A DNA stretch of 64,000 bases, from the NCBI RefSeq assembly GCF_036588685.1, contig NC_086386.1, positions 57,350,001 to 57,414,000 of the forward strand, given 5' to 3'. The notes beneath the pieces are model-generated. The model had not been told where the DNA came from, did no database searches, and saw only the letters and a program-made list of their open reading frames with translations. Each line of letters starts with the position of its first letter. Within the stretch, counting starts at the first letter, position 1. The DNA comes from Mytilus trossulus (Eukaryota). A program made the translations under genes and the position numbers. Positions 10,345-64,000 of this stretch are shown here, one piece after another.

Positions 10345-13300
10345 TCAGAAACATGGCGGAGGTTCGAAGTTTTTCAGGTGTATTAAAGTACACAAATCAT
10401 CAAACAATGAAAAATCACGATAGTCTCCATTTCCGTTTGTCCTCCTAATCATTGAAACGAACAGAATAAACAGTGCACTAGCAATTAGAAGACATTTCCA
10501 TAAGCGAAAATGCTGTACCGATACCTCAACTTTTATACAATTCGATGGAATCGCGTCTAAATCGTCCTTGCGCAAAAGACTTGACCTGATATGATGAACG
10601 CACAAATTGGAATCTGAACTAGAACACACTACAGTATATTTCTTAGGAGATGCAAAGGATATTTTTACATTTCCTTGTTGCATTTTGTCAGATTTTTGTA
10701 TTCTGTTCTCTGGGGTTTCTGGAATATTCACCAGAATAACATTGTCAGGCTGCGCTCGTTTAGAAACTGTCGATTTGGAAACAGCTTGTTGTTTGGAGTT
10801 TATTTGTCCATTTGGTTTATTCGTTTTTTGACATTCTAAACATACGCTGTTACACTGTACATAACTATATGACCTATCGTGTAATTTACCTTTTATACTT
10901 TGGTCAATTTGATTTCCTGTTAAATTTACCAATACGTTTTGGTTTTGTGCGATGGCATTTTTGTCTCCCTCGTGGAAGTTGTCTTTGACAGTGCTGTAAT
11001 AAACTTTTCCAGAAGAATCTCGAAAAGTTTCAATATGACTTTCACAAACATTTGTGTTGATTTGTATTATTTGTTCCGTGCCATATGATGTGACGTCACT
11101 GCCACAGTTCCTACAGATACCATTGTAATAGGGTATTGAGTGGTCTAACGGTATGCTTGCAGTCTTTCCAAATTTTGTTGCTTCAACAGAAGTATTCGGT
11201 TTGTTGCGATCACCTGTTTCATAAATGTCAGTTTGATATTGTGCGAGTTCTCCGCCGAATTTCGTATCCATCGATAACATATCGTCTGCTACAACATATT
11301 CAGACGAAGAACCATAACTCTTGTTGTATTCGTCAGCAGTGGTGTATGAAGGTATCGAAACTTTTTCTTCATGAGATTTTGTTTCAAAGTAAAGATCATC
11401 TTTTGTAATTCTATTCTTATCTTTTTCGTTATCTGCTGTAAGATCCTCAATTGTATTTTCTTCTTTTAAAGTATTAAGATATTGTGGCCGCTGCATTCCC
11501 GGAGTCTTTGGAAGAGACAGCAATGTTGTTGATAACATAGGACTTTCGGGATGGTCTGAAAAATATTGTTCCAATTCATCAGCTATTGATTTCCTCCGAG
11601 GTGATGCCTTCCTAGAATACATTGTCTTTTCCAATTCACTAAAAGATAAGTCTTCATCTGAATCTTCTTCAGAGTCAGGTGTTGTCAGTAATAACATGCC
11701 ATCTCCATCTGGACACCAACTTTTAGTCGGTTTCAGCGCCACCTGCACGCCATCATCAGGATTAGGTAAGTCAAAAATACTTTGTTGTCTATCAATGCCT
11801 TTCTCCGTACCATCTGTACTTTTTGAATAAGATTCCATTCGTTCATCTTTGATAGTTTCATGATATCGTAGGTCTTCTGGTACTACGGTTTTTCTCACTT
11901 GTTTGTTTCTATCAGTACTTTCTGTTGGTTTATATTTATTCTGTTCTTTTACTGTATTTAAATTACTAGCTGGCTTACGTCTTTCATCGTCTGTATTTAA
12001 AATATCTTCTTGTGTATCTCTGTGATGTTTTACATAATTTATTTCTTTTGGCGTATATCTGTTATCAAATATATTTCGATTATCTTTTGGTGTGTGTCTT
12101 TGTTCAGTAAAAGCCGGGATTTCGTTTGGTTGATATTTCTCTGCAAATGTCTTTTGTCCTTGGCTTTGGTTTATTAGAGTTTTTTGAGGTTTGTTTTGTT
12201 CTTTGCCTGTCCTGCGACTTTCTGTTGGCTTATATTGTTCTTCAACTGTTTTCGGACCAATTGTTTCAATGTTTCTTGGTACTTCTTTAGTTTCCCTGAT
12301 AGTGGGCTGATTTGTTCGTTCATTAATATATGCTTCAAATATTTCTTTGCCTCTTCTGTCTTTTGTAACTGGAGTATTTGTAACTTGCTTGGATCTTTCT
12401 TTCACCTCTCGTCGACTGATCATTGGTATGTTAAGCTGATCTTCTAGAACATGGTTATCGTTTTGCGTATACTTTTTATCCAATGTACTTTTAATAGCCT
12501 CAGGTTCGTGTCTCTGTTTCTCTTTAAATATCCTGTCTTTTTCTTCGTCAAGTATAGGGATATCTGCTAATTTATCTGTCGTTTTATATCTTCTTTCATT
12601 TGTAAAAATACTATGCATTGTTTCAGGTTTTTGTTCTTTTGTTGTATCAAGATTAGCCCGTCCTTGTTCTTGTTCTTTTGAGGCAAAAATACTGTTTGAG
12701 CCAGTTGTAATATGGCTGTTTACTGGCTTGTATTGGTCGATAGTTTGGCTACTGGTAAAAGTTTGCTTTGGTATGTGTTCTTTTTTAAAAGGAATATCTT
12801 CTGGCTTATGTATTTTATCCGACACACTAGAATCTACATTGGAGATCCGTTCTTGTTTTGATGTTACAGGTCTATCTGTTGGGGTATTCATATCGTCATT
12901 GGTAACATGATTCAGATTTAGTTCCATAGTAACAGGTGTATCTGTTTGCTTATATATTTTCTCATCTGTCCTCTTGTTTTCTGTGGGCTTAATTGAAAGT
13001 TCGTTAACTTCAAAACTATCTGTCTGCTGGAAACCGTCTGCAACAGTACCCGGTCGATTGTCGACCGTTCGTTTTTTTTTACCCTCACTTTCCATCTGAT
13101 CTCGGACATTCTGATGTATGACATCATATGGAGGGTACGTATGCTGAAAAGAATCTTTTTCGTTTGGTATAACGTAGCTTTCTTGTTGAAGGCCTTTTTG
13201 TCTCTTTTGTAACATATCCTGCTTGACTTCTGATTTTATAGGGAAATTTACTGCACCTTGAACACCTTCATCTTCTGTTAATTCTTTAACTGGTCCACTT

Positions 13301-16300
13301 TTCCTCTCTATCGCATGAAGCCATTTTTCTGCTGTTCTCTGACTAGCTGTTGGTTTGTATTTTTCTTCTCTTGTTACAATATTATCTGACAGCTTATAAG
13401 CTTCTTCAACTGTACTTCTGCTAGCTATTGGCTTGTATCCCTCTTCTTCTGTTACAGAAGTATCCTTACGCCTATATCTTTCGTCCAAAGTATTCCGACT
13501 AGCTCCTGGTGTATAGTTTATCCCTGATGGATCATTTGATTGCTTTGTTGTGACAGAGGTATTATTGGGTCTGTATTGGTCTTCATATAAATCAGATCTT
13601 AACGCAGGGTTTTGTCTTTGTACTTTAGTATCATCTTGTTTGTAGATGTCGTCAGTTTTATCAGGGTAAAGTATAATTTTTTGGTTTTGTTTGTCGTCGA
13701 TTGTTTGTTTATGTACTGGCTCCCCACGAAGAACATTTTTTTGCGGGGAAGTAAGCATAATATCACGACTCGGATCTTTTGGTACAATATCGCGTCTTTG
13801 TTCTTTACTTTTTTGCGCCTGTCGTAACCTATCCCAGGCTGCATCGGACTTTAAGTGGACGTTTACTGCACCTTGACTTCCTTTCTCGTCTGTTAATTCT
13901 TTAGTTGGTCCACTGTTCCTCTCTATCGCATGAAGCCATTTTTCTGCTGTTCTCTGACTAGCTGTTGGTTTGTATTTTTCTTCTCTTGTTACAATACTAT
14001 CTGGCAGCTTATAAGCTTCTTCAACTTTACTCCTGCTAGCTATTGGCTTGTATCTCTCTCCTTCTGTTACAGAAGTATCCTTACGTTTATATCTTTCGTC
14101 TAAAGTATTCCGACTAGCTCCTGGTGTGTAATTAATCCCTGATGGATCATTTGTTTGCTTTGTTGTGACAGAGGTATTATTGGGTCTGTATTGGTCTTCA
14201 TATAAATCAGATCTTAAAGCAGGGTTTTGTCTACGTTCTTTAGTATCATCTTGTTTGTAGATGTCGTCAGTTTTATCAGGGTAAAGTATCATTTTGTTTT
14301 GTCTGTCGTCGGTTGTTTGTTTATGTACTGGCTCCCCACGAAGAACATCTTTTTGCGGGGAAGTAAGCATAATATCACGACTCGGATCTTTTGGTACAAT
14401 ATCGCGTCTTTGTTCTTTACTTTTTTGCGCCTGTCGTAACCTATCCCAGGCTGCATCTGACTTTAAAGGGACGTTTACTGCACCTTGACGACCTTCCTCT
14501 TCTGTTAATTCTTTAGTTGGTCCACTGTTCCTCTCTATCGACTGAAGCCATTTGTCTGCTGATCTCTGACTAGCTGTTGGTTTGTATTTTTCTTCTCTTG
14601 TAACTATATTGTCTGCCAGCTGATAAGCTTCTTCAACTGTACTTCTGCTAACTATTGGCTTGTATCTATCTTCTTCTGTTACAGAAGTATCCGTACTCCT
14701 ATTTCTTTCGTCTAAAGAACTCCGACTAGGTCCTGGTTTGTTATTAACCCCTGTTGGATGACTTGTTTGTTTTGTTGTGGCATATGTTTTTGCTGGCTTA
14801 TATTTGTCTTTTTGTGAATCAGATCTAAATTCAGGGTTTTGTCTTTGTACTGTTGTATCTTTTCGTTTGTAGATGTCATCAGTTTTACCAGGGTACAAAT
14901 TCCCTTTTAGGTTCTGTCTGTCGTCGGTTGTTTGTTTATTTATTGGGTCCCCATGAAATACATTATATGGCGGGTTTGAAAGCACCATATCACGAGTCTG
15001 ACCTTTTGGTAACATATCGCTTCTTGGGCTTCTTGGTTCTTTTATTTTTTGCTCCTGGGGTAATCTATCTTGTTTTGTTTCTTTTTTAAGATCGGCGTCT
15101 AAGATTTTTTGAACAATTTCTTCTTCTGTTAGATCCCGATCAATAATGGTTTGCTTCGGTTTTTCTTGTTGTAAGGTAGTAAGTTCATCTTCTTTGAATA
15201 TTGGCGAACGGGTTGTGTCTTTTTGTCGGAACGTATCGACTGGGTACTCACGTGAATTTATCACTGAACTTTTTCGAATCTGGTTATCTGCTGGCATTAA
15301 TGACTTCATTTGATAGCTGTCTTCATGCCTGTCAATTTTCGATGGCTTTGTTAAGGAACTGTTTTTCTGAGACGTTGGATAGTCTAACTGTTTTCTGTCC
15401 TTTGTGCTGCTTTTCTGAAACATTTTGTCACTTGGGGCGTAACCGATGTTTTCATCCTGTCGTGTAAACTGATCATCTCTTGGTTTATTTTTTATTAGAT
15501 CATATGCTTTTGATACTTTATCGATAGGATTGGAATAGGTGTATTCTCCATTATCGGACAGTTTTCGCTGTTTGTCGATAGGATTGGAATAGGTGTATTC
15601 TCCATTATCGGACAGTTTTCGCTGACCTTTTGGTATTATAGTGCTTCTTTGGTCATTCATGTTTGTCTCTTGTGGTAATCTTGTACTTTTCAATTCTTTT
15701 TTGTATGCCGCATCTAAGATATTTTGAACAATTTCGTCCTCTGTTGGTTCATTATCAACGATATTTTGCTTCGGTTTTTCTCGGGAGGTAGCTAATTTAT
15801 CGTCTTTGAATAACTGCGAACGGTTAATTTCTTTACGAGAGAACGAATCGACTGGTTGAGCACGTGCATTGATAACTGATCGTTCTCGAAACTGGTTATT
15901 TCCTGGTATTGATGACGTCATGTCTTTATAGCTGTCTTTATATCTATCAATTCCCGATGGCTTTGTCGTTGAACTATATTTCTCAGACGTCAGATCGTCT
16001 ACTGGTTTTCTGTCTTTCATAGTGTATTTCTGAAACATTCTTTCACTTGGTTCGTAATCTGATAGTTCCTTCTGTCGTGTTAACAGATCATCTCTAGGTT
16101 TACTTTTTATTAAATCATATTTTTGTGATATTCTTTCCAGTGGATCAGAATAAGGTTTCTCACCATATACTGATAGTTTTCTTTGACGAGAAGTCTTGGA
16201 ATCATACTGTTCATATGCACTGCTACTCGGAATAGGATTATACCGTTTGTTGTACCGATCAGCTTCGGGATTAGACAGTTGTTTAGAAGACGTTTGGTTT

Positions 16301-16645
16301 TGTGGTTGTCGTGTTAACAGATCGTCTCTTGGTTTACTTTTTATTAAATCATATTTTTGTGATATTCTTTCCAGTGGATCAGAATAAGGGTTCTCTCCAT
16401 ATTCTGACAGTTTTCTTTGCCGAGAAGCCTTGGAATCATACTGTTCATATGCACTGCTACTCGGAATAGGATTATAACGTTTGTTTTGTCGACCAGCTTC
16501 AGGGTAAGACAGTTTGGAAGTTTGTATTTGTGGATGGTCATTTGTTAATTGCGCTGAAGCTTTTTTGTCCCGATCACTGCTTAGATACTTTCCTTGCTTT
16601 GAAGTTTCTGGTGACTCGTATTTCTTCATATATTGGGAAAATTGA
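10345..16645 (-). CDS. Terminal 6.3-kb exon of a ~2363-aa repetitive, disordered protein with a Cys/His region, C-terminal TM helix and KASH-like tail
   Basis: 2094-codon ORF in AT-rich DNA. Acceptor TTATCGTTATAG|T at 16645 completes the phase-2 codon (AG+T = Ser) in frame. The four exons sum to 7092 nt (2364 codons). TM CLLIASALFILFVSMI, then 33 aa ending PPPCF. Minus-strand AATAAA at 10173-10178. The gene is well supported; the KASH label is tentative. Confidence 0.9.
13215..15065 (-). repeat. Three coding tandem repeats of 612-615 nt (204-205 aa)
   Basis: CTATTGGCTTGTAT at 13425, 14040 and 14652; LRQAQKSKEQRRDIVPKDPSRDIMLTSPQK is identical in two units. Confidence 0.9.
15100..16520 (-). 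repeat. Further coding repeats: 234-nt pair, 54-nt exact tandem, diverged ~615-nt pair
   Basis: RYNPIPSSSAYEQYDSK...KPRDDLLTRQ x2 (period 234); QRKLSDNGEYTYSNPIDK x2; EEEIVQKILDA / EDEIVQNILDA at 15151 vs 15766. Confidence 0.85.
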
Positions 16646-16757
16646 CTATAACGATAATTAAAGTCATGAACGAAATTTTAAAAATTACAATGAATACTTA
16701 AGTTTTCTAAAGGCATTAGAATGACAAAAACAAAGAGAAATAAAAGGACGCCATAAC

Positions 16758-31746: not shown

Positions 31747-31978
31747 CGAAAATGCTTCATATAAAGAATTGAGAAACATGTCACAAATGTTAAGAACAGA
31801 CAATCACAGGGTTACCCCGGCCGGTACTAAAAAACTAAAGAATATGATGGTAAAAGAAATCTCCTTCTAGAGCCTCTTAAATTCCCGCCAGTTTTCAGAG
31901 GAACATAGGACCATTCGTTACTCTCCCCTAATGGAACAGACCCGTTAATTAGTCATTTTGCAGTCAGACTGAATGTAA

Positions 31979-32381
31979 ATGGTTCTAATTATGCATCGCT
32001 GTTCCATATTCATAAGATATATTCCAACAAGTTTAAACCCCCAAGGATGCGGCAGACAGATTTCAAATGGGACTTTGACAGATGTACTGTTTAATAGCTA
32101 CGAAGATTTTCAATTGCGTCCATTGAGAGTCGGAGCTTTGTCTTTCGGAAAGCGTTTTGGTGGCTCCGAAGTATTTTCATACATTGAAAACAACAGTAGA
32201 CAGTTTGTTCGAGAAGAGTTTCTCACAGACCAAGATGTAAACCAGAATGCCATCAGTACTTACTCCGTTGATTTTGAGTCAATATTCAGCAAGGGATTTG
32301 ATGCCATCCATGCCTCTATTGTGGATGACAGCAGTCAAAATGATGATGTAAAATTGTTTACAAAATTCCTGGATTCGTTAG
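31979..32381 (+). CDS. Exon 1 of PD-(D/E)XK-like nuclease-fold protein (putative mitochondrial presequence)
   Basis: ATG at 31979 directly preceded by an in-frame TAA; donor TTAG|GTGGGT; 403 nt, phase 1. The start could instead be Met5. Confidence 0.7.
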
Positions 32382-32885
32382 GTGGGTTTTCATAAATCTA
32401 AAGTTATTTAAATGTGTGAAATTATCTCCGGGAGAAAAGGGGGGGGGACTTTTGTTGTTGATTGACAGGGGGTGCCACTGGTGTTCCATTAAGACTGGGA
32501 TAATTTCAGGATTGATTCTTTCAGGATGTGGAAATTCTTTTTTTCTAATTTTCCAGATGTCAGGAATTCCTTTCAGTATTCACCATGTTCACATATATTT
32601 AAGCTTGAAAAATTGACCTAGCTATTCCAACGGCACATCCTATCACCTTGTATAAAGGAAGCCCCACCTCCTGCGAAATTATCATGATTATTAACAGTAA
32701 AAAAAAGGGGAGGGTGGAGGTTGGCATAAAACATTGTTAAAATATATATATATATGTATATGCCCCCCTGGGGACCTAATTTGGAAAATAAAATTTATCT
32801 TATCTTATCTTATCTTATATATAGTTATGTATATTATTATCGTTTAAAATATATTGCATATTGATTGGTTGATGTATATCATGTA

Positions 32886-33098
32886 CTGTAAATTAAGAAA
32901 TTATTGCGAGGTTTTTGTTATTGCGAATAATGCGACAGAGTTCATTGGAGTTGTAAACGCAATAATTAAAACTGGCATTTTGTAATATTTTAACTGAATT
33001 AAGCATGACTTTTCTCAAAACCGTAAAAATTAAAATAAAAAAGTTTAAAATGACAAAATCGCAATAATAAATGCACACAATAATTTCTGAATTTACAG
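32886..33098. mobile_element. Tc1/mariner-like MITE in intron 1 of gene 2
   Basis: TA|CTGTAAATTAAGAAATTATTG ... CAATAATTTCTGAATTTACAG TIRs. Confidence 0.6.
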
Positions 33099-33488
33099 TT
33101 TATGTTTTGCAGTCTCACTATGTATGCTATAAAACAAACATGACAAAGTATATATAAGCGTATGAATGCCCTTTACTACATTTTGTATCAGGCGTCAAAC
33201 AGTCATTTTCACTCTACAGTTAGTAGCAAATTGGTTAAAATTATACAGTGATCTGTCAAAAACTTGTTGTCCTGATTCATCAGTAGTCTCGAGAGTTTGA
33301 GGGATTGTTAAAAATAAAAATGTTTGAGAAAATTAAGGGGGGATTATTTAAGCACTGCCTCAGGGTGCCGGATTTTTCTGCTGTGTAGGAGACTTATTTG
33401 TGGCCTTCAGCTGTTTTCTGCTCTAAGGAATTGGAATGTTGTCTCTGTCATATTCCCTATTTCTATTCTCAAATTTTATAGCATGTAC

Positions 33489-34215
33489 ATTTTTGTCTCG
33501 CCTTGACGGAGTCAAAAAGCGAGACATAGGTATGCTGTTTTCGGCGTCAGCGGCGTCAACAATGTATTAGTTTGTGATTAGCTCAGTTTTATGGGGATCC
33601 AATTGTGGTACGTCAATGATAATTGGTATGCAGATGTATTACCATTGCCACATCTCATTGCCATGGAGATTATTTGGCTCCGCCCCCTCAGTCATGGTCT
33701 ATTGACTTTGAATGGTTTGCTTACTTTACATGTATTAGTTTGTGATTAGGTCAGTTTATGGAGATCCACTTGTGGTACGTCAATGATAATTGGTATGCAG
33801 ATGTATTACCATTGCCACATCTCATTGCCATGGAGATTTTTTGGCTCGGCCCCGTCAGTCATGATCTATTGACTTTGAATGGTTTGCTTACTTTACATGT
33901 ATTACTTTGTGATTAGGTCAGTTTATGGAGATCCACTTGTGGTACATCAATGATAATTGGTATGCAGATGTATTAGCATTGTCACATCTCATTGCCATGG
34001 AGATTATTTGGCTCAGCCCCCTCAGCCATGGTCTATTGACTTTGATTGTTTTATTACATTACATGTACATGTATTAGTTTGTGATTAGGTCAATTTATGG
34101 GGATCCACTTGTGGTAGGTCATTGATATTTGGTTTGCAATTGTATTAGCATTAATTGGCACAATTCATTGCCAAAATTACAAAAAGGCGAGACATATCTC
34201 TGTGATAACAGTTTA
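33489..34215 (+). mobile_element. Helentron-associated non-autonomous element (HINE-like) with ~168-bp internal tandem repeats
   Basis: TTTTGTCTCGCCTT...AAGCGAGACA subterminal IR, (CGGCGT) microsatellite, ~3.5 units (33563, 33731, 33898, 34070), terminal AAGGCGAGACA. Confidence 0.75.
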
Positions 34216-34282
34216 TGGTACATATACTTTTAAAGTTACTTGTATATTATAATAATTCTTCATTTGAATAAAAATAACTTGT

Positions 34283-34619
34283 AACAGGCTATTATTTGAA
34301 CTTGGAATTATTTTTAATTATGGAATTTGCATAATTTCTTGTGCTGGAAAATTTTTAATAAATTCCATGTTTATTCTTTACTCAAATGTTCTGTGCTGCG
34401 CACAACACTTTCTATTACGAATAAGATAGTCATGTAGCACATTTTCAATAGAATGCACTGTGCCGAGCACAACACTATCTATACAAAATACATTGTATGG
34501 AAAGTGTTATGAACCGCTCAAAACATTATAATACCAAATTAAAAGGCATTTATAAAAAAAAAAGAAATTAAGCAAATTCCATAATTAAAAATAATTCCAA
34601 GTTCAAATAATAGCCTGTT
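34283..34619. mobile_element. MITE with ~48-bp perfect TIRs
   Basis: AACAGGCTATTATTTGAACTTGGAATTATTTTTAATTATGGAATTTGC and its reverse complement ending at 34619. Confidence 0.8.
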
Positions 34620-35216
34620 TTGTATAGTTTTGAAGTAGTATAACCCTGACTAGTGGTTGATTTTATTGCTGTCATGGCTGTGTTACATTTGTACATATAT
34701 AAGTTTTTGCATTTATTATTTTGTTCTTAAACAGGGACATTAGTTTACTTGATTGAATTGTTTTTCATTTGACTATTTAGGGTCTTTTATAGATATAGGA
34801 AGATGTGGTGTGAGTGCTAATGAGACAACTCTCCATCCAAGTAACAATTTAAAAACTAAACCATTATAGGTTAAAGTACGGCCTTCAACACGGAGCCTTG
34901 GCTCACACCGAACAACAAGCTATAAAGGGCCCCAAAATTACTAGTGTAAAACCATTCAAACGGGAAAACCAACGGTCTAATGCATCTGACTATGGGGTTA
35001 AATATATGGTCTTTGCTCATTGTTGAAAGCGGTATCTATGGTGACCCATAGTTGTTAATTTCTCATGTTTCTGTGTCTTGGTTTATTTTGAAGAGTTGTC
35101 TCATTGCAAACCCTACCACATCTTTTATATTAAACATGTTAAATGCAAATTATACCACATCTTTTCAGTAAATATGGTAAATGATTGCCTAAATTCAAAG
35201 GGACTACCTTTCTTAA

Positions 35217-35489
35217 GGTGGTACCCAACACTTGCACTAAAATTAATTTGGCTCGTTTAATTTTAATAAAATTTTGACAAAGTATTTACTTTGACCCTTT
35301 AACAAAAATATAAAAATTTCAAAAATTTTGAACCAACCGTTATGTCAGAAAAATTACACTGGTTATATAGCAGTTTGACAAACACTAATTTTGATCATTG
35401 AGAAGCTTTTTATTGCCTTCCCAATGCAATGTAATGAAAACATTCAGCTGATATTACAGAGTTATCTCCCTGTAGTGTTAGGTACCACC
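35217..35489. mobile_element. Kolobok-like MITE (TTAA TSD)
   Basis: TTAA|GGTGGTACCCAACACT ... AGTGTTAGGTACCACC|TTAA. Confidence 0.8.
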
Positions 35490-35872
35490 TTAATTCTCTT
35501 AAACTCACTGTGCTAGGCATTAGAGAAATTGACATCTTAATATTTGTCTGACGAAAAATCTTAAATAATGAATATATATGAATATGGAAGGGATTCAAAG
35601 TGGATATTTTTTTTTCATAAATAAAAATGTATTTGATAATCATTGGCATGATTAGAGGAACAGGTTCTCATGAAGTAAATCTTGGATAATCGGATTTATC
35701 CAATTTTGATAGTTCAATTGTGTAATTTTGATACTCTCACCCATACTCAGACTTAAAAATAAATCAATTGGATATACATGATACATGTATATGATAATCT
35801 ACTTGTACCAATGTACCAATATTAATGCATTTTGTATATTAACCAATAACAATGTATGTATTTGTCTTTCAG

Positions 35873-36094
35873 ATTACCATGAAGGGTGCCTTCTGAATTT
35901 TTTTTCTAGAGAATACCCTAACATATCAGAACCAGAAATGTCAGCAGTGTTTGTTACCCACATTTTATCACATTTAGTTCAGGAGAACAAACTTGGCAAC
36001 ACATGTACTGTTAAAGTCAACTACAAAAATAAACCTGAGCAATGCCCTTGTAATATATGTCAAAGAAAAGTGCATTATGGGAAGACAACATTTG
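35873..36094 (+). CDS. Exon 2 of PD-(D/E)XK-like protein (CPCxxC motif)
   Basis: Acceptor TTTGTCTTTCAG|AT, donor TTTG|GTAAGT; 222 nt, phase 1->1; ...NKPEQCPCNICQRKVHYGKTTFG. Confidence 0.8.
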
Positions 36095-36460
36095 GTAAGT
36101 TGTTTAGTTTGAAATAGTTTGAAATTGTGATTTTCACCAGAGTTGGCAAAGTATTACCCGTCGGGAAAACCTGGGCTGGGCAATACTCAATGAAACAGGC
36201 AATACTGGGCAATATGATTTTTTTAAGCTTATTTCAACATACAATAGTAAAGAGTTGTTGTTGTTTCATAGTATTATAGCTAAATATATACATTTTATAC
36301 AGATAACCATTGAGAGTCATTTCTAGAAGATTATAAATTCAATTTCATTCTCTTCTCCACATAAATTCTATGTAGGAAAAATACAAGATTTGCACATTTT
36401 AGGATTCCTTGTCAATTTCCAAGCATTGTTTCAATAATCTTAACACTTTATTGCAGTGTT

Positions 36461-36570
36461 TATGTGAATTGTAAATTAAATTGCTATATATGTGAATTGT
36501 AAATTAAATTGCTATATATGTGAATTGTAAATTAAATTGCTACATATGTGAATTGTAAATTAAATTGCTA
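36461..36570. repeat. 28-bp tandem repeat x4
   Basis: TATGTGAATTGTAAATTAAATTGCTA(TA) at 36461, 36489, 36517 and 36545. Confidence 0.9.
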
Positions 36571-36802
36571 AATAAACACCTTACAGGGCCTTGTCATTAA
36601 CTCTTATAGAAATGAAAAGACTGATTATTGTTATATAAACATATCCATGTTCTAATCTGAATAATTACTTATTAATTAGTTTTGTAAATTTGTACATATT
36701 TAAATTATCTTGCATGTACATTAATACATTCTTTATATTATACTATAGTTATATATATATTTGAAAAAATATTTTTTTATCAGAGTTGTTAGAATAATTC
36801 TG

Positions 36803-37065
36803 CATACCTGCCAACTGTCACTATTTGCAGGGGGAAATCCCCCATTGAGGCTCTCAAATTGAAATTTTGAAAGAGCAATTTTGTCCACAATTTTAATAAA
36901 ACAAAACAATTAATTTCACAATGACATGAGGCTTATAAAAGTATGAAGAGGCCAAAAAATAACATTTAAATGTATTTAAAGGCCCTTTCAAAGGTTTTTT
37001 AGGACTATGACAGCCATCTTAAACGCAAAACCCCCATGGGCAAATTTGAAAAGTTGGAAGGTATG
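36803..37065. mobile_element. MITE, CATA-ended (hATx/hAT6-like)
   Basis: CATACCTGCCAACT / AGTTGGAAGGTATG; flanks ATTCTG / ATTCTT. Confidence 0.6.
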
Positions 37066-37494
37066 ATTCTTTCTCAGATGTATACACTTGTACTTTTGTA
37101 CATGTATGTATCCTAAGACTCTCAAACAAGTAAACTTATTTATAAATAAAAATAGGTTTATATATTTTACACAACTGGGATGTTCTTTTAAAATCTTATT
37201 TGTTATCGTAAATGGCTATTAATCAGATTTTATATTAACAACTAATAATAATTAATTAACTACAATGTACTATGAAATATTACTACAAGCATTGTATATC
37301 ATGTATATAAGTGATATGACACTACATGTAAGTTTATTGCTGGGTGGTTGCTTTAAAAGGTGGCTAAGTAATCAGTTAAAATCAATAGAGACGAGTCCCA
37401 TTAGTATAGAAAGTCACTGTTCCATGTAATAGAAATTAGAGATTTAATTTAGGATTCTGTATTAATGAATATGCTTGTGACTTTTCGATTTTAG

Positions 37495-38156
37495 GAAATA
37501 GATATATCTGGTATAGTCGGCCCGACATCTTTCTATTCCCAGGAACAGGAGGTCATTGTCAAATATTTGTTAAAAAAAGACGATCAACTTCTTGCGAGTA
37601 CGATCCAAGTCAACTTGAGAGTCTGCTTGATAATGACAAGAGTATCCTCAGACGTGATTCCGTTGTACAACAAGCTGTCTGTCAGGCCATTACATTTGCC
37701 TTCTATCAGAGACGATACCAAATATCCAAAAACTGGAATAGTGAAGACATAGTCACAGCAATCCCTACCATTGTATTGAATCCTTTCGGTTTTGATGTGT
37801 ATATTTATGATCCACAACATGACGTACTGTTGAGAAATTTTGATCAGCCGATTCCATTTTGGCGCCAGTCCGAATCAAATCCCAAACAGAAAGTGTTAAA
37901 CAAGTCTTCACTTCTCCAATTATGGCTTATCATGAATCATTTGGTCTTTAAACCACAATTTACAAAGGATGGAATAATAGCATTAGGAGGTACGGCAGGG
38001 TTTTTGTCACAAGTGGATCCCGTAAGAATGCAGAGGTTAGAAGAAATGATGAACTTGGGTCTTCCTGCCGAAGCAAAAGATTTCAAATTGTCTGAGTTTA
38101 AGAGTACAATTCCTGCCTACCATATTTCATGTAAAGACAATCAAGAACAAAGGTAG
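37495..38156 (+). CDS. Exon 3 of PD-(D/E)XK-like protein (nuclease-fold core)
   Basis: Acceptor TTCGATTTTAG|GA; 662 nt open to TAG; GNRYIWYSRPDIF...QQAVCQAITFAFYQ...AIPTIVL...VYIYDPQHDVLL...LWLIMNH. The three exons total 1287 nt (428 aa). Confidence 0.8.
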
Positions 38157-39259
38157 GTGCAAATGATAATCACTTTACTGGGCAGTCTAACTTAAGTTAA
38201 AATGTCAGCATACATTAATCATACATGTAGTGAAACCTGCCTAAACTGAATCCTACATAAACCAAAGAACTGTAAACGAAACATGGTCTTAAGAACCATC
38301 ATATCAAAATGTATGCTTGTCATACTGATAAAACCAACACAATCTCAAGTCCTGAAGAGGTTCGTCATTGTTTATGATTATATATAGGGTGTGTGTCAAT
38401 GAGACACCAGTTAGGGTGCTAAAATCAGTTGAGGTTTATGTATAAGAACTATAATACAGTTTTATTAACACAATTGGTAATCTTGTAGAAGTATAGGAGT
38501 CTTGGTTGATACAGTTCATAGGGTTATTATGCTTGGTCTTACCAAAGACAAACTGAAAGACTTTAAAATTGGTTTTGCTGCATTTTTATATTTCATAAAG
38601 AAGACTTGTCTTCTTCTTCTTCCCGTTACGAGTCGAACTCTGTAGTAAAGTGTAATTGACTCAGGCATGTGAGGTTATGTGTCAGAAATCGAAGACATTA
38701 TCATATATATCTCTAAAAAACAATTTGTTTGATGAACTTGTATTTTCTTTAAGTATTTTATATATTTGTATATTATTTAACTGAATGCGCTCGTAGTATT
38801 TGCTTATGGATGTCCATTTGTCTTCTGTCTTGACTCTAAGATAATAAATCTGTATCTAATAAAAAATCCTCATTTTTTGCCGTGCAGGAATATTGACATC
38901 AGAATTCGAAATTCAGAGAAACCAATGGAGGAATACAAACAACAATAATAATACAAAGACTTGCTTCATACAGGATGGTAATCCATGACGACTGATTCAG
39001 TGCAGCTATTGATAGGAAGGGTAATGATACCAGCCCAATACGAATGATCAGAATGTCAACCACTTATAGTTCAGTCTTTGAGTTGAAATGAAATGAAAAA
39101 AACGAAATTCTTGTGTAACACCATGACAGTTCAACTTTACACGTACATCACCTAGTTGTTTTAGATTAACATTTGAGTAAGATATTATGTTAAAATCTTT
39201 TGAATGAACTGTTCAAATGTAGAATAGCTTTGTAATCTCTAGATACATTTAGTTATGAC

Positions 39260-59793: not shown

Positions 59794-61692
59794 AACTCAT
59801 GTAGGAAAGTCCATTCCGGCAGGATTGTCGGATCGATGTGTGTATAATTCAAGGCTCTGTGAAAACTAGCAGATCAAGTGTCACCTGATATTTGTAAAGC
59901 AACACCAAGAAGATTGTCAACGTTAAATCCATTTTTCTATTCAAATAAATTTCTTCTATGACAAGTGCCAGCTCTTGAAGGGCCTCTTGACATTGTTTGA
60001 CATTTTTAAGATGATAATGACATAGAAACTTAAGAAAATAGGCATAAGCTGAAGATGGAATCATAACCGTTCTATCATCAAATTCAATAAGAAGTTCATC
60101 TGGTATTAATACAGAGTTTCTGGTAAATTCAATACGATCGACAAGAAATAATTTCCATAAATGAACAATATTCTTCTTCTGGAGTAGTTTCAGTTTGAAA
60201 AATTCGTAATGAACGTCCGACATGCTCATGAAATTGTACATTTTTTCCGAAGTACATTTCGCTATGGAGTACAGGATAATACGTACAGCTTTGGCGTATT
60301 GTTTTGTTTTATAGAAGAACGAAGCTATCATCAACCACCCAGAAACAGCGTCATGATAAATATTCTGAAGCAGAGTACTAAGACATGATTTGTTTTGTTG
60401 GTATTGGTATTTATTATAATTACTGTTTACACTGTTAAGAGGAAAAAACTGGGCACGCCATGAACACAATATTGACATGTAGTATGTATATAAGTATTTT
60501 ATTGATGACTGTTTACATGAAACTGTCTTTTGTTTTCCTCGATCAAATTCAGAACCTTGAAAACGTTTGAGATTGATATTGAAAAGAGAATTTGCAATTT
60601 GCAATAAAAAAGAATTCGTTGTTTTCTCAACATCATTTATATACAATCGGTTTTGTTCCATGTTGAAATAATGCATTGATCCAGAAAAATTGGATACTTG
60701 ATCTGAAAATAAAATGCATCGCCAACCGTAGCTTTGCAATATATTTAGTTCTTCGGATAGTATTTTACGAGCACGGCCCTCAATTTTATTCTAAAACATA
60801 TTGTTCTCTGGTATAAAGTAATGCAAACAAACCGAATACTCAACGCAATAGATCCGTCTGCTAAAACATTGCAGGAAGCAAGGTATCAATTGGTCAGGTT
60901 TCCATATGGATTGAGGCAGTTCTTCAGAAATCCAGAAAATAATGGTTTTTATGAAATAAGAACAGAGTAATTCTTTGCATTCGGAGAAGGTAGCTATAAC
61001 ATCTTTCAAAAGAATTTTTATTTAAAGTTTTTCACCGAATGAGAACGATATTCTCCATTCTAGATCCTCTTTTGATGATCCTTTTACACCGATAGGTACA
61101 AAAAGTACTCCGTGTTTTATGACACTTTGTTTAACCTCATAGCTTGGCCATGAGTAACTAGATCTTTGTATCCAATTTACTGCAGGTGATACCCATGTTT
61201 TACAATGTAAGCAATGGGCAAAGTCAAAAATTTCCTGTTTGTCAGAAAGACACGGTCCATGAATAATATAGAAGGTGTCATCGTACAAAAACCACTGTTT
61301 CCATAATGTGCTGGATAGATAATGCTTCTCAGTGATTTGTACACTGTTTTCAAATAAAAATTCATTACTGCAATTTTCTAATCTGAGCTTTGTAAATCCA
61401 GGTTTCATATCGTCTGCATCCATTGACAGATATGATATAATTGGATTCAAACGGGGCTTTACTTCGTAAACCTCAATATTTCTATAAAGATACATAATGT
61501 CTAAATCACTACCTCTCATGTCAAGTCCTTCTCCAAAACTGCCACTTGTTATCATGATTTTCTTTCCGAAACTTGACAAATTATCTCTAACCGCGTTCAA
61601 CAACCTGATTTGTTTAACATGATCTTCCGTTCCTACTATATTTTGACACATATATCTATATAGTTCTGTTGACAAATGTTGTGTGATGTGGT
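59794..61692 (-). pseudogene. cGAS-like receptor (cGLR; Mab-21 nucleotidyltransferase plus C-terminal helical/TPR-like region) pseudogene
   Basis: Motifs SGSFGEGLDMRGSDLDIM, IHGPC...DFAHCL, WRISFS, CSYFIKTIIFW and LHYFIPENNMF. The three listed ORFs share one frame, split by TAA 61022-24 and TAG 60791-93, with a frameshift near 59925. Acceptor TTTTCTGCTTACAG|AC at 61692; the upstream exon was not located. Confidence 0.88.
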
Positions 61693-64000
61693 CTGTAAGC
61701 AGAAAAAAAAAGATTATGAAAGACACAACATATTTTAAAACTGCATTGAAGTGAGTACAACTATGTGTATATGTTTACTATTTTACTTGAAGTGAAAATC
61801 AAATCGGCGTGTATAGTGTGGCTTGTATTCAATCTAAATTAGAATTTAGATCGCAAGTCATGGAAACAATGAAAATGTAGACCTACATCTTTAAATAATT
61901 AATTAATTAACGTTTAATTAGATTACCGTTAATTATGTTTCTTAAAGATCCTGCCCCGAACTCTAATTGATTTTAGGTTTTTAGGATTAACAATAGCAAT
62001 CAATATACTGGACAATTGATCTGTCAAACTAATTACCACGACGATAATTTAAAAAAAAACATAACTAATTAATTATTTGATTTTCAACACAAACTTTTAT
62101 AAAATCTATCGAAATTGAAAAAAGTTCGGTTAACCGGTAAGCGTTTTTGGTATTCGGTATTCGGTCGTTCGACCGATTAACCGATTAACCGTTGACAACA
62201 CTACAAATAACCCATTTGCATACACACATTTGTGAAAATAGAAGCTACCATAATTCAGTTTTGAACTTAAAAAGTCTGGTGGTAAAAATACAATGAAAAA
62301 TGATAGTTAGAAAAGAACTGGTGTCATTACTTATTTATGTTAAACTAGTTTAATTCTGTGATATCATATCATCTCCCGTGGAATCTCATTAATATCAAAG
62401 TTTTAATTCACAGTTCGTCCTTTGTGTGTAAAAACTCAAGACTATTTACTTGTTTGAGACTATTGTTGCATTCGCACTTAAGAATGATAGAAAAGTTGTA
62501 AATATTGCGTACGTTGTACAGATATAATATCAAATTTCATTTCTTTAAAACAAAATATCTTTTTTTTATAGAAATATAGATCATGCATAAAACGATTAGC
62601 AATTTATCAATCAGAACGCATTTTACCATCATTTGGGCAGTTTGCCATTTTACTTTAGGAAAAATAATCGTTCAGTTGGTGCATTATTTCTTAATTAAGG
62701 AGAAGTAGTGATTGATGACATTTCAAATGATTTTTTCAAATTATCTAAGCAACTTCCATAGGTATTTTGAACACGAAAATTAAATAAAGTATCCAAATTC
62801 ACATCTCAATAATGCTTATTCTGTAAGTTATAATGGGAAAATTGTAAAACATTATTTCTGTTTTGTTTCTGTTGTGTTTCCTTATTGTTGATGACTCTTC
62901 ACCATTACTTGTTTTAAAATTGTCATCATTACTTCCGCAATCACGGGTATTGCGTTTCAAGTGAGGAATGGGTACTTCCGTAAAAAAACTTTTTTTTAAG
63001 TTCTTTTTAAAAAAAAAGTAAAAAACACATATTTAAGCAAATTCCAGATATATTTTCAAATCAATGACATGACATCTTTGATTTTGGTGGAGTTTTATTT
63101 ACCACAAAAATGAACATCTTATTGCTTTTAGTCTTAACAAAAAGGATCGTAGCATAATATTTCGTTGCTATTTCAACGTAAAGCTAAATATAACACCATA
63201 TAGGCATATAGGCAACCGTACGACTTTCAACAATGAGAAAGACTCGTACCGTATAGTCGGCTATAATACGCCCCGACATGAAAAAAACGAAACAATTCAA
63301 TTGAAAAAACTAAGGCCTAATTCTAAACAAAACAATTTACGAAAACAGAATATGAAAGATATAAACCAACGGGAACCACTGAAGTATAGGCACCTGACAT
63401 GGCACAGGCACATAAAGATTCTGGCGGGGTTAAACATGTTTGTGAGCGCTTAACCCTCCCCTAACCTTGGGCAGTAGTGTACCAGTACAGCATAATACTT
63501 AACTATAAAAATCAGTCGAGAAATGCTTAACTCATCAGATGGGTGCAACAATAAATACATCTTACAAAATCACTGAGTGGACTCAGACGGGTACTTATAT
63601 ATTCTGAATAAAAGGACACTATGAGAGAAGCAGCACTTACTGGCAGCGAGTTCAAAGCCAATAACAACTTCGTGTTTCTAAGACTAAAATATCAATCATC
63701 ATGCATCCAACATCCAATTGATTTAGTGTACACACGTCATCAATAGTCAAAGAAAAACATGACCCTGTGCAATGCCTAACTAAAGGTATCGATAGCTTGT
63801 GGTATTATGAAAGTACATATGTGTATGATTTTATTTTACTGGTAACAAAATCAATATGTAAACACTAAAACAATTTTCAAAGATTTAATTACAGTGTTGA
63901 ATAAGTATCTTTTAAGAATAATTTAATCTTAGGAGGAATTTAAGGATGGATAATTTTACCCGGATCGTATCTAAATTTCTTGGCTTGATTTACAACATCA

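Follow-up and report, generated by a model that had tools for sequence, protein, structure and literature searches.

A spliced Mytilus trossulus gene from an unnamed bivalve protein family of predicted PD-(D/E)XK fold with a likely mitochondrial branch

Introduction

Does a spliced gene in the genome of the mussel Mytilus trossulus encode a restriction-fold protein that enters mitochondria, and would such a protein still cut nucleic acid? The gene lies on the forward strand of a 64,000-nucleotide stretch of contig NC_086386.1 (assembly GCF_036588685.1, positions 57,350,001 to 57,414,000), referred to here as the window; coordinates without a contig name count from its first base. A preliminary description, made from the sequence alone, had read the gene as encoding an imported nuclease or DNA-binding protein, and as a candidate for recognition or elimination of mitochondrial DNA (mtDNA) in mussels with doubly uniparental inheritance (DUI). 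The analysis presented here shows that the gene is a genuine member of a bivalve PD-(D/E)XK family that has no name yet, one branch of which is likely mitochondrial. The focal copy has no E-x-K motif at the place aligned to intact paralogues, and is most likely a non-cutting binder. The reading favoured as a whole, that of a mitochondria-imported PD-(D/E)XK-fold protein without E-x-K that binds but does not cut mitochondrial RNA or DNA, is put forward tentatively, at somewhat under an even chance.

Gene structure and family

The focal gene is real and spliced. Three coding exons with GT-AG introns can be read directly from the sequence, and the frame is open across exons 1-3. Splice joints were taken from the contigs of four public runs, whose RNA nature is only guessed. 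The 32381>35873 joint was seen through loose contig ends in two of the four runs, the 36094>37495 joint in two of them, and the 38152>38888 joint (GT..AG) in contigs of three; exact GT-AG skips of this kind point to spliced transcripts. The last joint places the stop at 38154-38156, where the preliminary description had ended its frame, inside intron 3, within the donor. Thus, the intact frame and three exons described earlier stand, while the proposed length of 428 residues does not, as a fourth exon had been missed. The protein has 447 residues encoded by four exons, or 443 counted from the second Met. The RefSeq orthologues of Mytilus edulis and M. galloprovincialis, with 446 residues, share the C-terminus encoded by exon 4 and start at the second Met, and the closest proteins to the focal protein are from Mytilus (91-96% identical).

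At the 5' end, in-frame stops at 31970-31978 directly precede the first ATG, so no upstream coding exon extends the frame, and the objection raised beforehand, that such an exon might replace this N-terminus, is ruled out. In run X10, one contig spans 31894-31950 and runs on into exon 1; contigs of run X14 gave no match on exon 1. The motifs listed in the preliminary description, CPCNIC, WYSRPDI, IPTIVL, YDPQHDVLL and LWLIMNH among them, all occur in the frame. The features of the gene are as follows.

31894..31978, plus strand: 5' untranslated region, at least from 31894; TGA/TAA before the first ATG, short upstream ATGs at 31931 and 31973; run X10 contig
31979..32381, plus strand: coding exon 1, residues 1-134, with the presequence-like N-terminus and N-terminal beta/alpha domain; the second ATG, the orthologue start, is at 31991
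31979..32065, plus strand: predicted presequence for mitochondrial import; 3 Arg and neither D nor E, with an R-3-like site, R26-Q-I-S, right ahead of the first folded helix
32306..35919, plus strand: hypervariable block, residues 110-150, predicted helices; from the last part of exon 1 into exon 2, spanning intron 1
35873..36094, plus strand: coding exon 2, residues 135-208; helix with E156, H164 and C192-x-C194-x2-C197 (predicted zinc site); run joints
37495..38152, plus strand: coding exon 3, residues 209-428, predicted PD-(D/E)XK core; run joints, structural models
37524..37526, plus strand: D219, conserved PD aspartate; family alignment
37614..37640, plus strand: segment aligned to the E-x-K of intact paralogues, with no E-x-K in the focal copy; family alignment
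38888..38948, plus strand: coding exon 4, last 19 residues and stop; 38152>38888 joint, RefSeq orthologues

The introns also carry two tandem repeats, at 33562-34152 (167 bp, 3.5 copies) and 36461-36574 (28 bp, 4.1 copies).

Searching this genome with exon 3 gave 22 matches among 31 scored candidates, on at least 12 contigs, and in the paralogues the exons are divided at the same points ahead of the HE and WYG motifs. A whole-library search seeded with the mussel protein returned 102 proteins at E <= 0.001; the family alignment comprises 95 rows, eight short fragments having been left out. Thirty clusters were looked up, of which 24 are named, all of them as uncharacterised proteins of bivalves (mussels, oysters, pearl oyster, scallops and a venerid clam). 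The preliminary description had placed the gene in an expanded, uncharacterised family of marine invertebrates. Expansion and lack of characterisation are borne out, and the range narrows to bivalves (24/24 named clusters), as far as language-model comparison, the whole-library search and the 30 look-ups cover other animals. There is no real Pfam match for the three exons or the 95 members, nor a real match in PHROGs or NCBIfam among 10 members. The literature search found no description of the family, although the literal string PD-(D/E)XK is unsearchable and most subscription journals lie outside its coverage, so that absence from print is not established. The available text of PMC3417536 has nothing on the family, and none of the three accessions tried occurs in the supplements of PMC12750733, which use other gene ids.

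Predicted fold and active site

AlphaFold models of the M. edulis orthologue P0001 (predicted local distance difference test, pLDDT, 85.5; residues 1-22 disordered with pLDDT <50; first helix at 28) and of a second family member, P0007 (pLDDT 90.0), were compared structurally against 48,161 chains. The top match is mL37 (P0001: Z 9.2, root-mean-square deviation (rmsd) 4.5, 203 residues aligned; P0007: Z 9.4, 4.7, 204), accompanied by mL65 (Z 8.6, 4.9, 199 and Z 9.2, 4.3, 190) and by the type IIG restriction enzymes BpuSI (Z 7.9 and 8.5) and DrdV (Z 7.4 and 8.3); these four top Z-scores are nearly tied, and values of 7-8 are common for unrelated models. Below them runs a long tail of PD-(D/E)XK nucleases, which make up most of the top 50 rows. 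In agreement with the fold proposed in the preliminary description, the two models, matching repurposed endonucleases, type IIG enzymes and other nucleases of this fold, indicate that the focal protein almost certainly has a PD-(D/E)XK core.

In the sections of PMC8998825 available, mL37 and mL65 are described as repurposed endonucleases that bind and stabilise rRNA. Both mL37 (MRPL37) and mL65 (mS30/PDCD9, PF07147) align over model residues 53-360, N-terminal domain included (190-204 residues, rmsd 4.3-4.9; their Z of about 9 differs from that of the type IIG enzymes by about 1-2), whereas the restriction enzymes align only from about residue 130. Foldseek also ranks the two first among named proteins, but weakly (best E 8e-3 and 0.13), and gave no match at E 0.001 in PDB and viral structures; in language-model features they again come first among named proteins (0.83-0.84, a lead only). 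Taken from models, these results are suggestive of a special closeness of the family to mL37 and mL65, which are mitochondrial, as the focal clade likely is. On the other hand, identity is 7-11%, there is no match to PF07147 (0/95 family members at E 0.1) or at profile level, and the focal family is multi-copy, fast-evolving and bivalve-limited among named matches, with a conserved His/Cys cluster and, in some members, E-x-K.

The nuclease domains of BpuSI and DrdV resemble the family over 138-157 core residues (Z 7.4-8.5, rmsd 3.3-4.0), with the PD aspartate kept. Unlike these enzymes, the focal protein has no methyltransferase or target-recognition domain, the third strand of its predicted fold is interrupted by a loop, E-x-K is missing, and the gene is eukaryotic and spliced. 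The eukaryotic PD-(D/E)XK exonucleases MGME1 and EXO5 gave weak, non-significant Foldseek matches (E 0.11-0.6). Both are conserved low-copy active enzymes, and the role of MGME1 is mitochondrial.

The PD aspartate is kept in 78/82 rows; in the focal protein it is D219, which in the orthologue model stands at the beginning of strand 219-221, the second core strand. The E-x-K motif survives in 18/82 rows scattered over the core tree and in register at three of the 17 loci aligned from this genome. In intact paralogues the third strand is followed by an inserted acidic loop and then by this motif, which the P0007 model places in coil beyond the loop. No E-x-K is present at the aligned place in the focal copy, consistent with the earlier remark that a canonical motif was not obvious. 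The two substitutes proposed at that time can be discarded, as DNDK reads DNEA in orthologues and FVKK has no acidic residue. The scattered survival of the motif suggests an active ancestor followed by repeated loss, and the focal copy is, to judge from its residues, most probably catalytically dead or weak. It retains E156, D219, H164 and three cysteines. Conservation of the His (74/74) and of the cysteines (70/73, 70/75 and 69/73) across the family alignment suggests that this cluster forms a zinc site.

N-terminus and predicted import

A quick maximum-likelihood tree of 62 full-length rows contains one clade of 22 rows, in which the focal gene is placed, with a support of 99. The same 22 rows group together in a core-only tree, from which the N-terminal 127 positions and the loop were removed (support 0.87). 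N-termini were scored as presequence-like when the first 30 residues held at most 2 acidic residues, a net charge of at least +3 and at least 2 Arg. By this rule, which is ad hoc and was set after viewing the N-termini, 19/22 rows inside the clade, 4/40 outside and 187/4027 internal 30-mer windows qualify, counts that are descriptive since the rows are related. Adding an R-x-hydrophobic-S/T/A motif, after the R-2/R-3 site motif of presequences in the accessible part of PMC3673636, leaves 13/22 rows inside the clade versus 0/40 outside. NLS-like motifs (resembling nuclear localisation signals) show the opposite distribution, with 22/40 rows outside versus 3/22 inside. Furthermore, 11 of 20 paralogue stretches from this genome gave an exon 1 with Met, nine passing the rule from the first Met and two from the homologous Met. 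Presequence-like starts are therefore shared among paralogues, whose lack of them had been named in advance as evidence against import.

In the focal protein, the first 34 residues had been described as free of acidic residues, with three Arg and an R-Q-I-S motif; indeed the first acidic residue is D35, Lys is absent, and the motif begins at R26. This N-terminus is basic, acid-poor and, to judge from the orthologue model, unstructured, with an R-3-like site, and has the presequence features of the ad hoc rule. In addition, five orthologous sequences, M. coruscus included, retain both its acid-poor character and the R-Q/H-I-S site. These sequence features support import of the clade more strongly than import of the focal copy, although the latter is also likely to reach mitochondria. 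Outside the main clade, P0068 of Mercenaria mercenaria has a presequence-like N-terminus as well, possibly an independent gain.

Variation at the focal locus

Compared with three sequences from M. edulis and M. galloprovincialis, residues 110-150 are only 46% identical (19/41), but the flanks 94-98% (69/73 and 57/58). The same block matches another M. edulis sequence at 36/41 positions and M. coruscus at 23/41. Since exon 1 has a single match in this assembly, the variants are probably allele classes at one locus, with gene conversion from an unassembled paralogue as another conceivable source. Variability of this kind would suit a surface that sets specificity.

A different kind of variant is found in run X8 (protein P0003), where the end of a dispersed repeat is joined at 32070 and a different basic N-terminus replaces the presequence, the repeat providing an in-frame Met and an acid-free start. 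A 20-base tag of this repeat (loci L042-L047) has 20 exact copies in the genome, and the copies end alike in CCCTG, resembling miniature inverted-repeat transposable elements. In run X10, 186 other letters replace 31951-32097, possibly the same repeat-derived allele.

Interpretation and alternatives

In the favoured reading, the family would have begun as active nucleases, of which E-x-K survives in scattered branches; one clade would have gained presequences before the split of mussels and oysters, and most copies would have lost catalysis. The focal protein would be imported into mitochondria, its presequence cleaved after R26-Q-I, and would bind selectively, by sequence or by partner, in the manner of mL37 and mL65, the variable helices at 110-150 setting its specificity. 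Alternatively, it may modulate the mitochondrial paralogues that bear E-x-K, a motif kept in 4/21 presequence-clade rows. There is a reasonably good chance that its ligand is a nucleic acid. The family may also be a surviving relative of the nuclease that was repurposed into mL37 and mL65.

Several observations weigh against this account, besides the ad hoc presequence rule, the near tie of the structural scores and the allele with a replaced N-terminus. Comparison at sequence level did not link the family to mL65: hhalign gave a probability of 0.3 from a shallow 6-row profile, and neither family profile matched any PDB sequence at E 10. As presequences go in this family, the focal one is on the weak side, with three Arg but no Lys and with two Pro and two Gly; its R-3 site has Ile rather than F/L/Y. 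An NLS-like KKRR stands in the loop at the place where 14/40 non-clade rows have such a motif, and the orthologue is one of only three clade rows (of 22) to carry one. Family members are mostly acidic (median net charge -11; focal orthologue +2), and retention of E156 and D219 makes a rearranged active site possible. A complex model of the orthologue with mussel mL65 scored 0.00; built without alignments, it is counted neither way.

An unlikely alternative is that the nuclear and mitochondrial branches together provide a cell-wide defence, as fast-evolving nucleases and decoys against viruses, intracellular parasites or selfish DNA. The large family dispersed over at least 12 contigs, its long branches, the repeated loss of E-x-K, the hypervariable block, the NLS-like motifs of the non-clade rows and the close fold match to type IIG enzymes would all suit such a role. 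However, no fusion to an immune domain and no Pfam, PHROG or NCBIfam match was found in the members searched, and intron positions common to the paralogues point to an old cellular family.

It is rather improbable that the focal copy is nuclear or cytosolic, its weak presequence having decayed and the KKRR loop directing it to the nucleus. The long branch of the focal copy (1.38) and the allele without the presequence would fit this reading, as would the loop motif itself, yet the gene falls within the presequence clade, and the acid-poor start and cleavage-like site have been kept in its five orthologous sequences.

The link with inheritance of mtDNA, raised in the preliminary description, is weakened but not refuted. 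Five of the 22 clade rows, in two subclades, are oyster proteins (Crassostrea or Saccostrea), one of which retains the motif E-x-K. The available text of PMC5800059 lists two Crassostrea species as non-DUI, the DUI families given in the accessible part of PMC3040558 do not include Ostreidae, and Saccostrea is taken as non-DUI by family. The presence of these rows indicates that the clade is older than, and not specific to, mussel DUI. An inheritance system covering paternal elimination in oysters and DUI in mussels, in which one parental mtDNA is destroyed by mitochondrial E-x-K paralogues and a mitotype is chosen or protected by inactive copies, is doubtful. In its favour, clade members with PD, E-x-K and presequence-like starts exist, the block at 110-150 is hypervariable among orthologues, and, in a search seeded with a mussel protein, none of the rows looked up in the 13-row subclade of the focal gene is named as oyster (four were not looked up and two are unnamed). 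There is also a precedent in Cucumis, where MTI1, a nuclear-encoded and mitochondria-targeted endonuclease, decides mtDNA inheritance according to the portions of PMC12062418 available; its methods there use APE-family phylogeny, so its fold would differ from that of the mussel family and any MTI1-like function would be an analogy only. Against such a system, a comparison of clams is cited as giving no evidence for nucleases that enforce maternal inheritance (available text of PMC6754070, citing Punzi 2018; annotated genes only). As far as that text goes, earlier searches for bivalve inheritance factors screened annotated nucleases and would have missed this family.

The fullest form of this idea is similarly improbable: a multi-gene, mitochondria-imported restriction-like system, sister in structure to mL37 and mL65, in which active E-x-K paralogues and inactive hypervariable partners discriminate mitotypes. 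If true, a restriction-like system would enforce paternal mtDNA loss in oysters and would have been rewired for DUI in mussels. The known nucleases of animal mitochondria form a small, conserved set. This mussel genome holds at least a dozen unannotated paralogues of predicted restriction fold with presequence-like starts, some with the complete catalytic motif, and the family offers a concrete list of candidates for how bivalves keep or destroy sperm mtDNA.

Finally, derivation of the presequence clade from mL37/mL65, as alternative mitoribosome subunits or assembly factors, is very unlikely: these are the top structural matches and the N-terminal domain is covered too, but a true mL65 gene lies elsewhere in the genome, a mollusc mL65 profile finds mL37 (E 1e-9 to 1e-12) and not the focal family, the family has E-x-K in places and conserved His/Cys residues, and two thirds of the full-length rows have no presequence. 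The true mL65 gene is at loci L048-L049 (G000:C4:9345335-9350366); a PF07147 search of this genome, with three candidates scored, gave no separate mL37 match.

Other copies and neighbouring genes

Elsewhere in this genome, two family copies with internal stops, L014 (G000:C4:81917288-81917851) and one at G000:C67:15051-15131, are likely pseudogenes. A block of at least 35 kb is present twice, at G000:C6:50739532-50784399 and G000:C11:36443000-36487955, with about 99.7% identity over the compared stretches, which reflects either a recent duplication or an assembly artefact. It carries a convergent pair of family genes, E-x-K being intact in both, as well as a third member that is distant (L003, L004, L010, L011, L023 and L024).

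Within the window, the minus strand holds a 2110-residue open frame at 10345-16677, for which Pfam gave no real match; its sequence is of low complexity, contains internal repeats and has a hydrophobic end. Also on the minus strand, at 59849-61774, lies a gene for a Mab-21/cGAS-like nucleotidyltransferase (PF03281, E 3e-6), followed downstream by a TPR-like frame.

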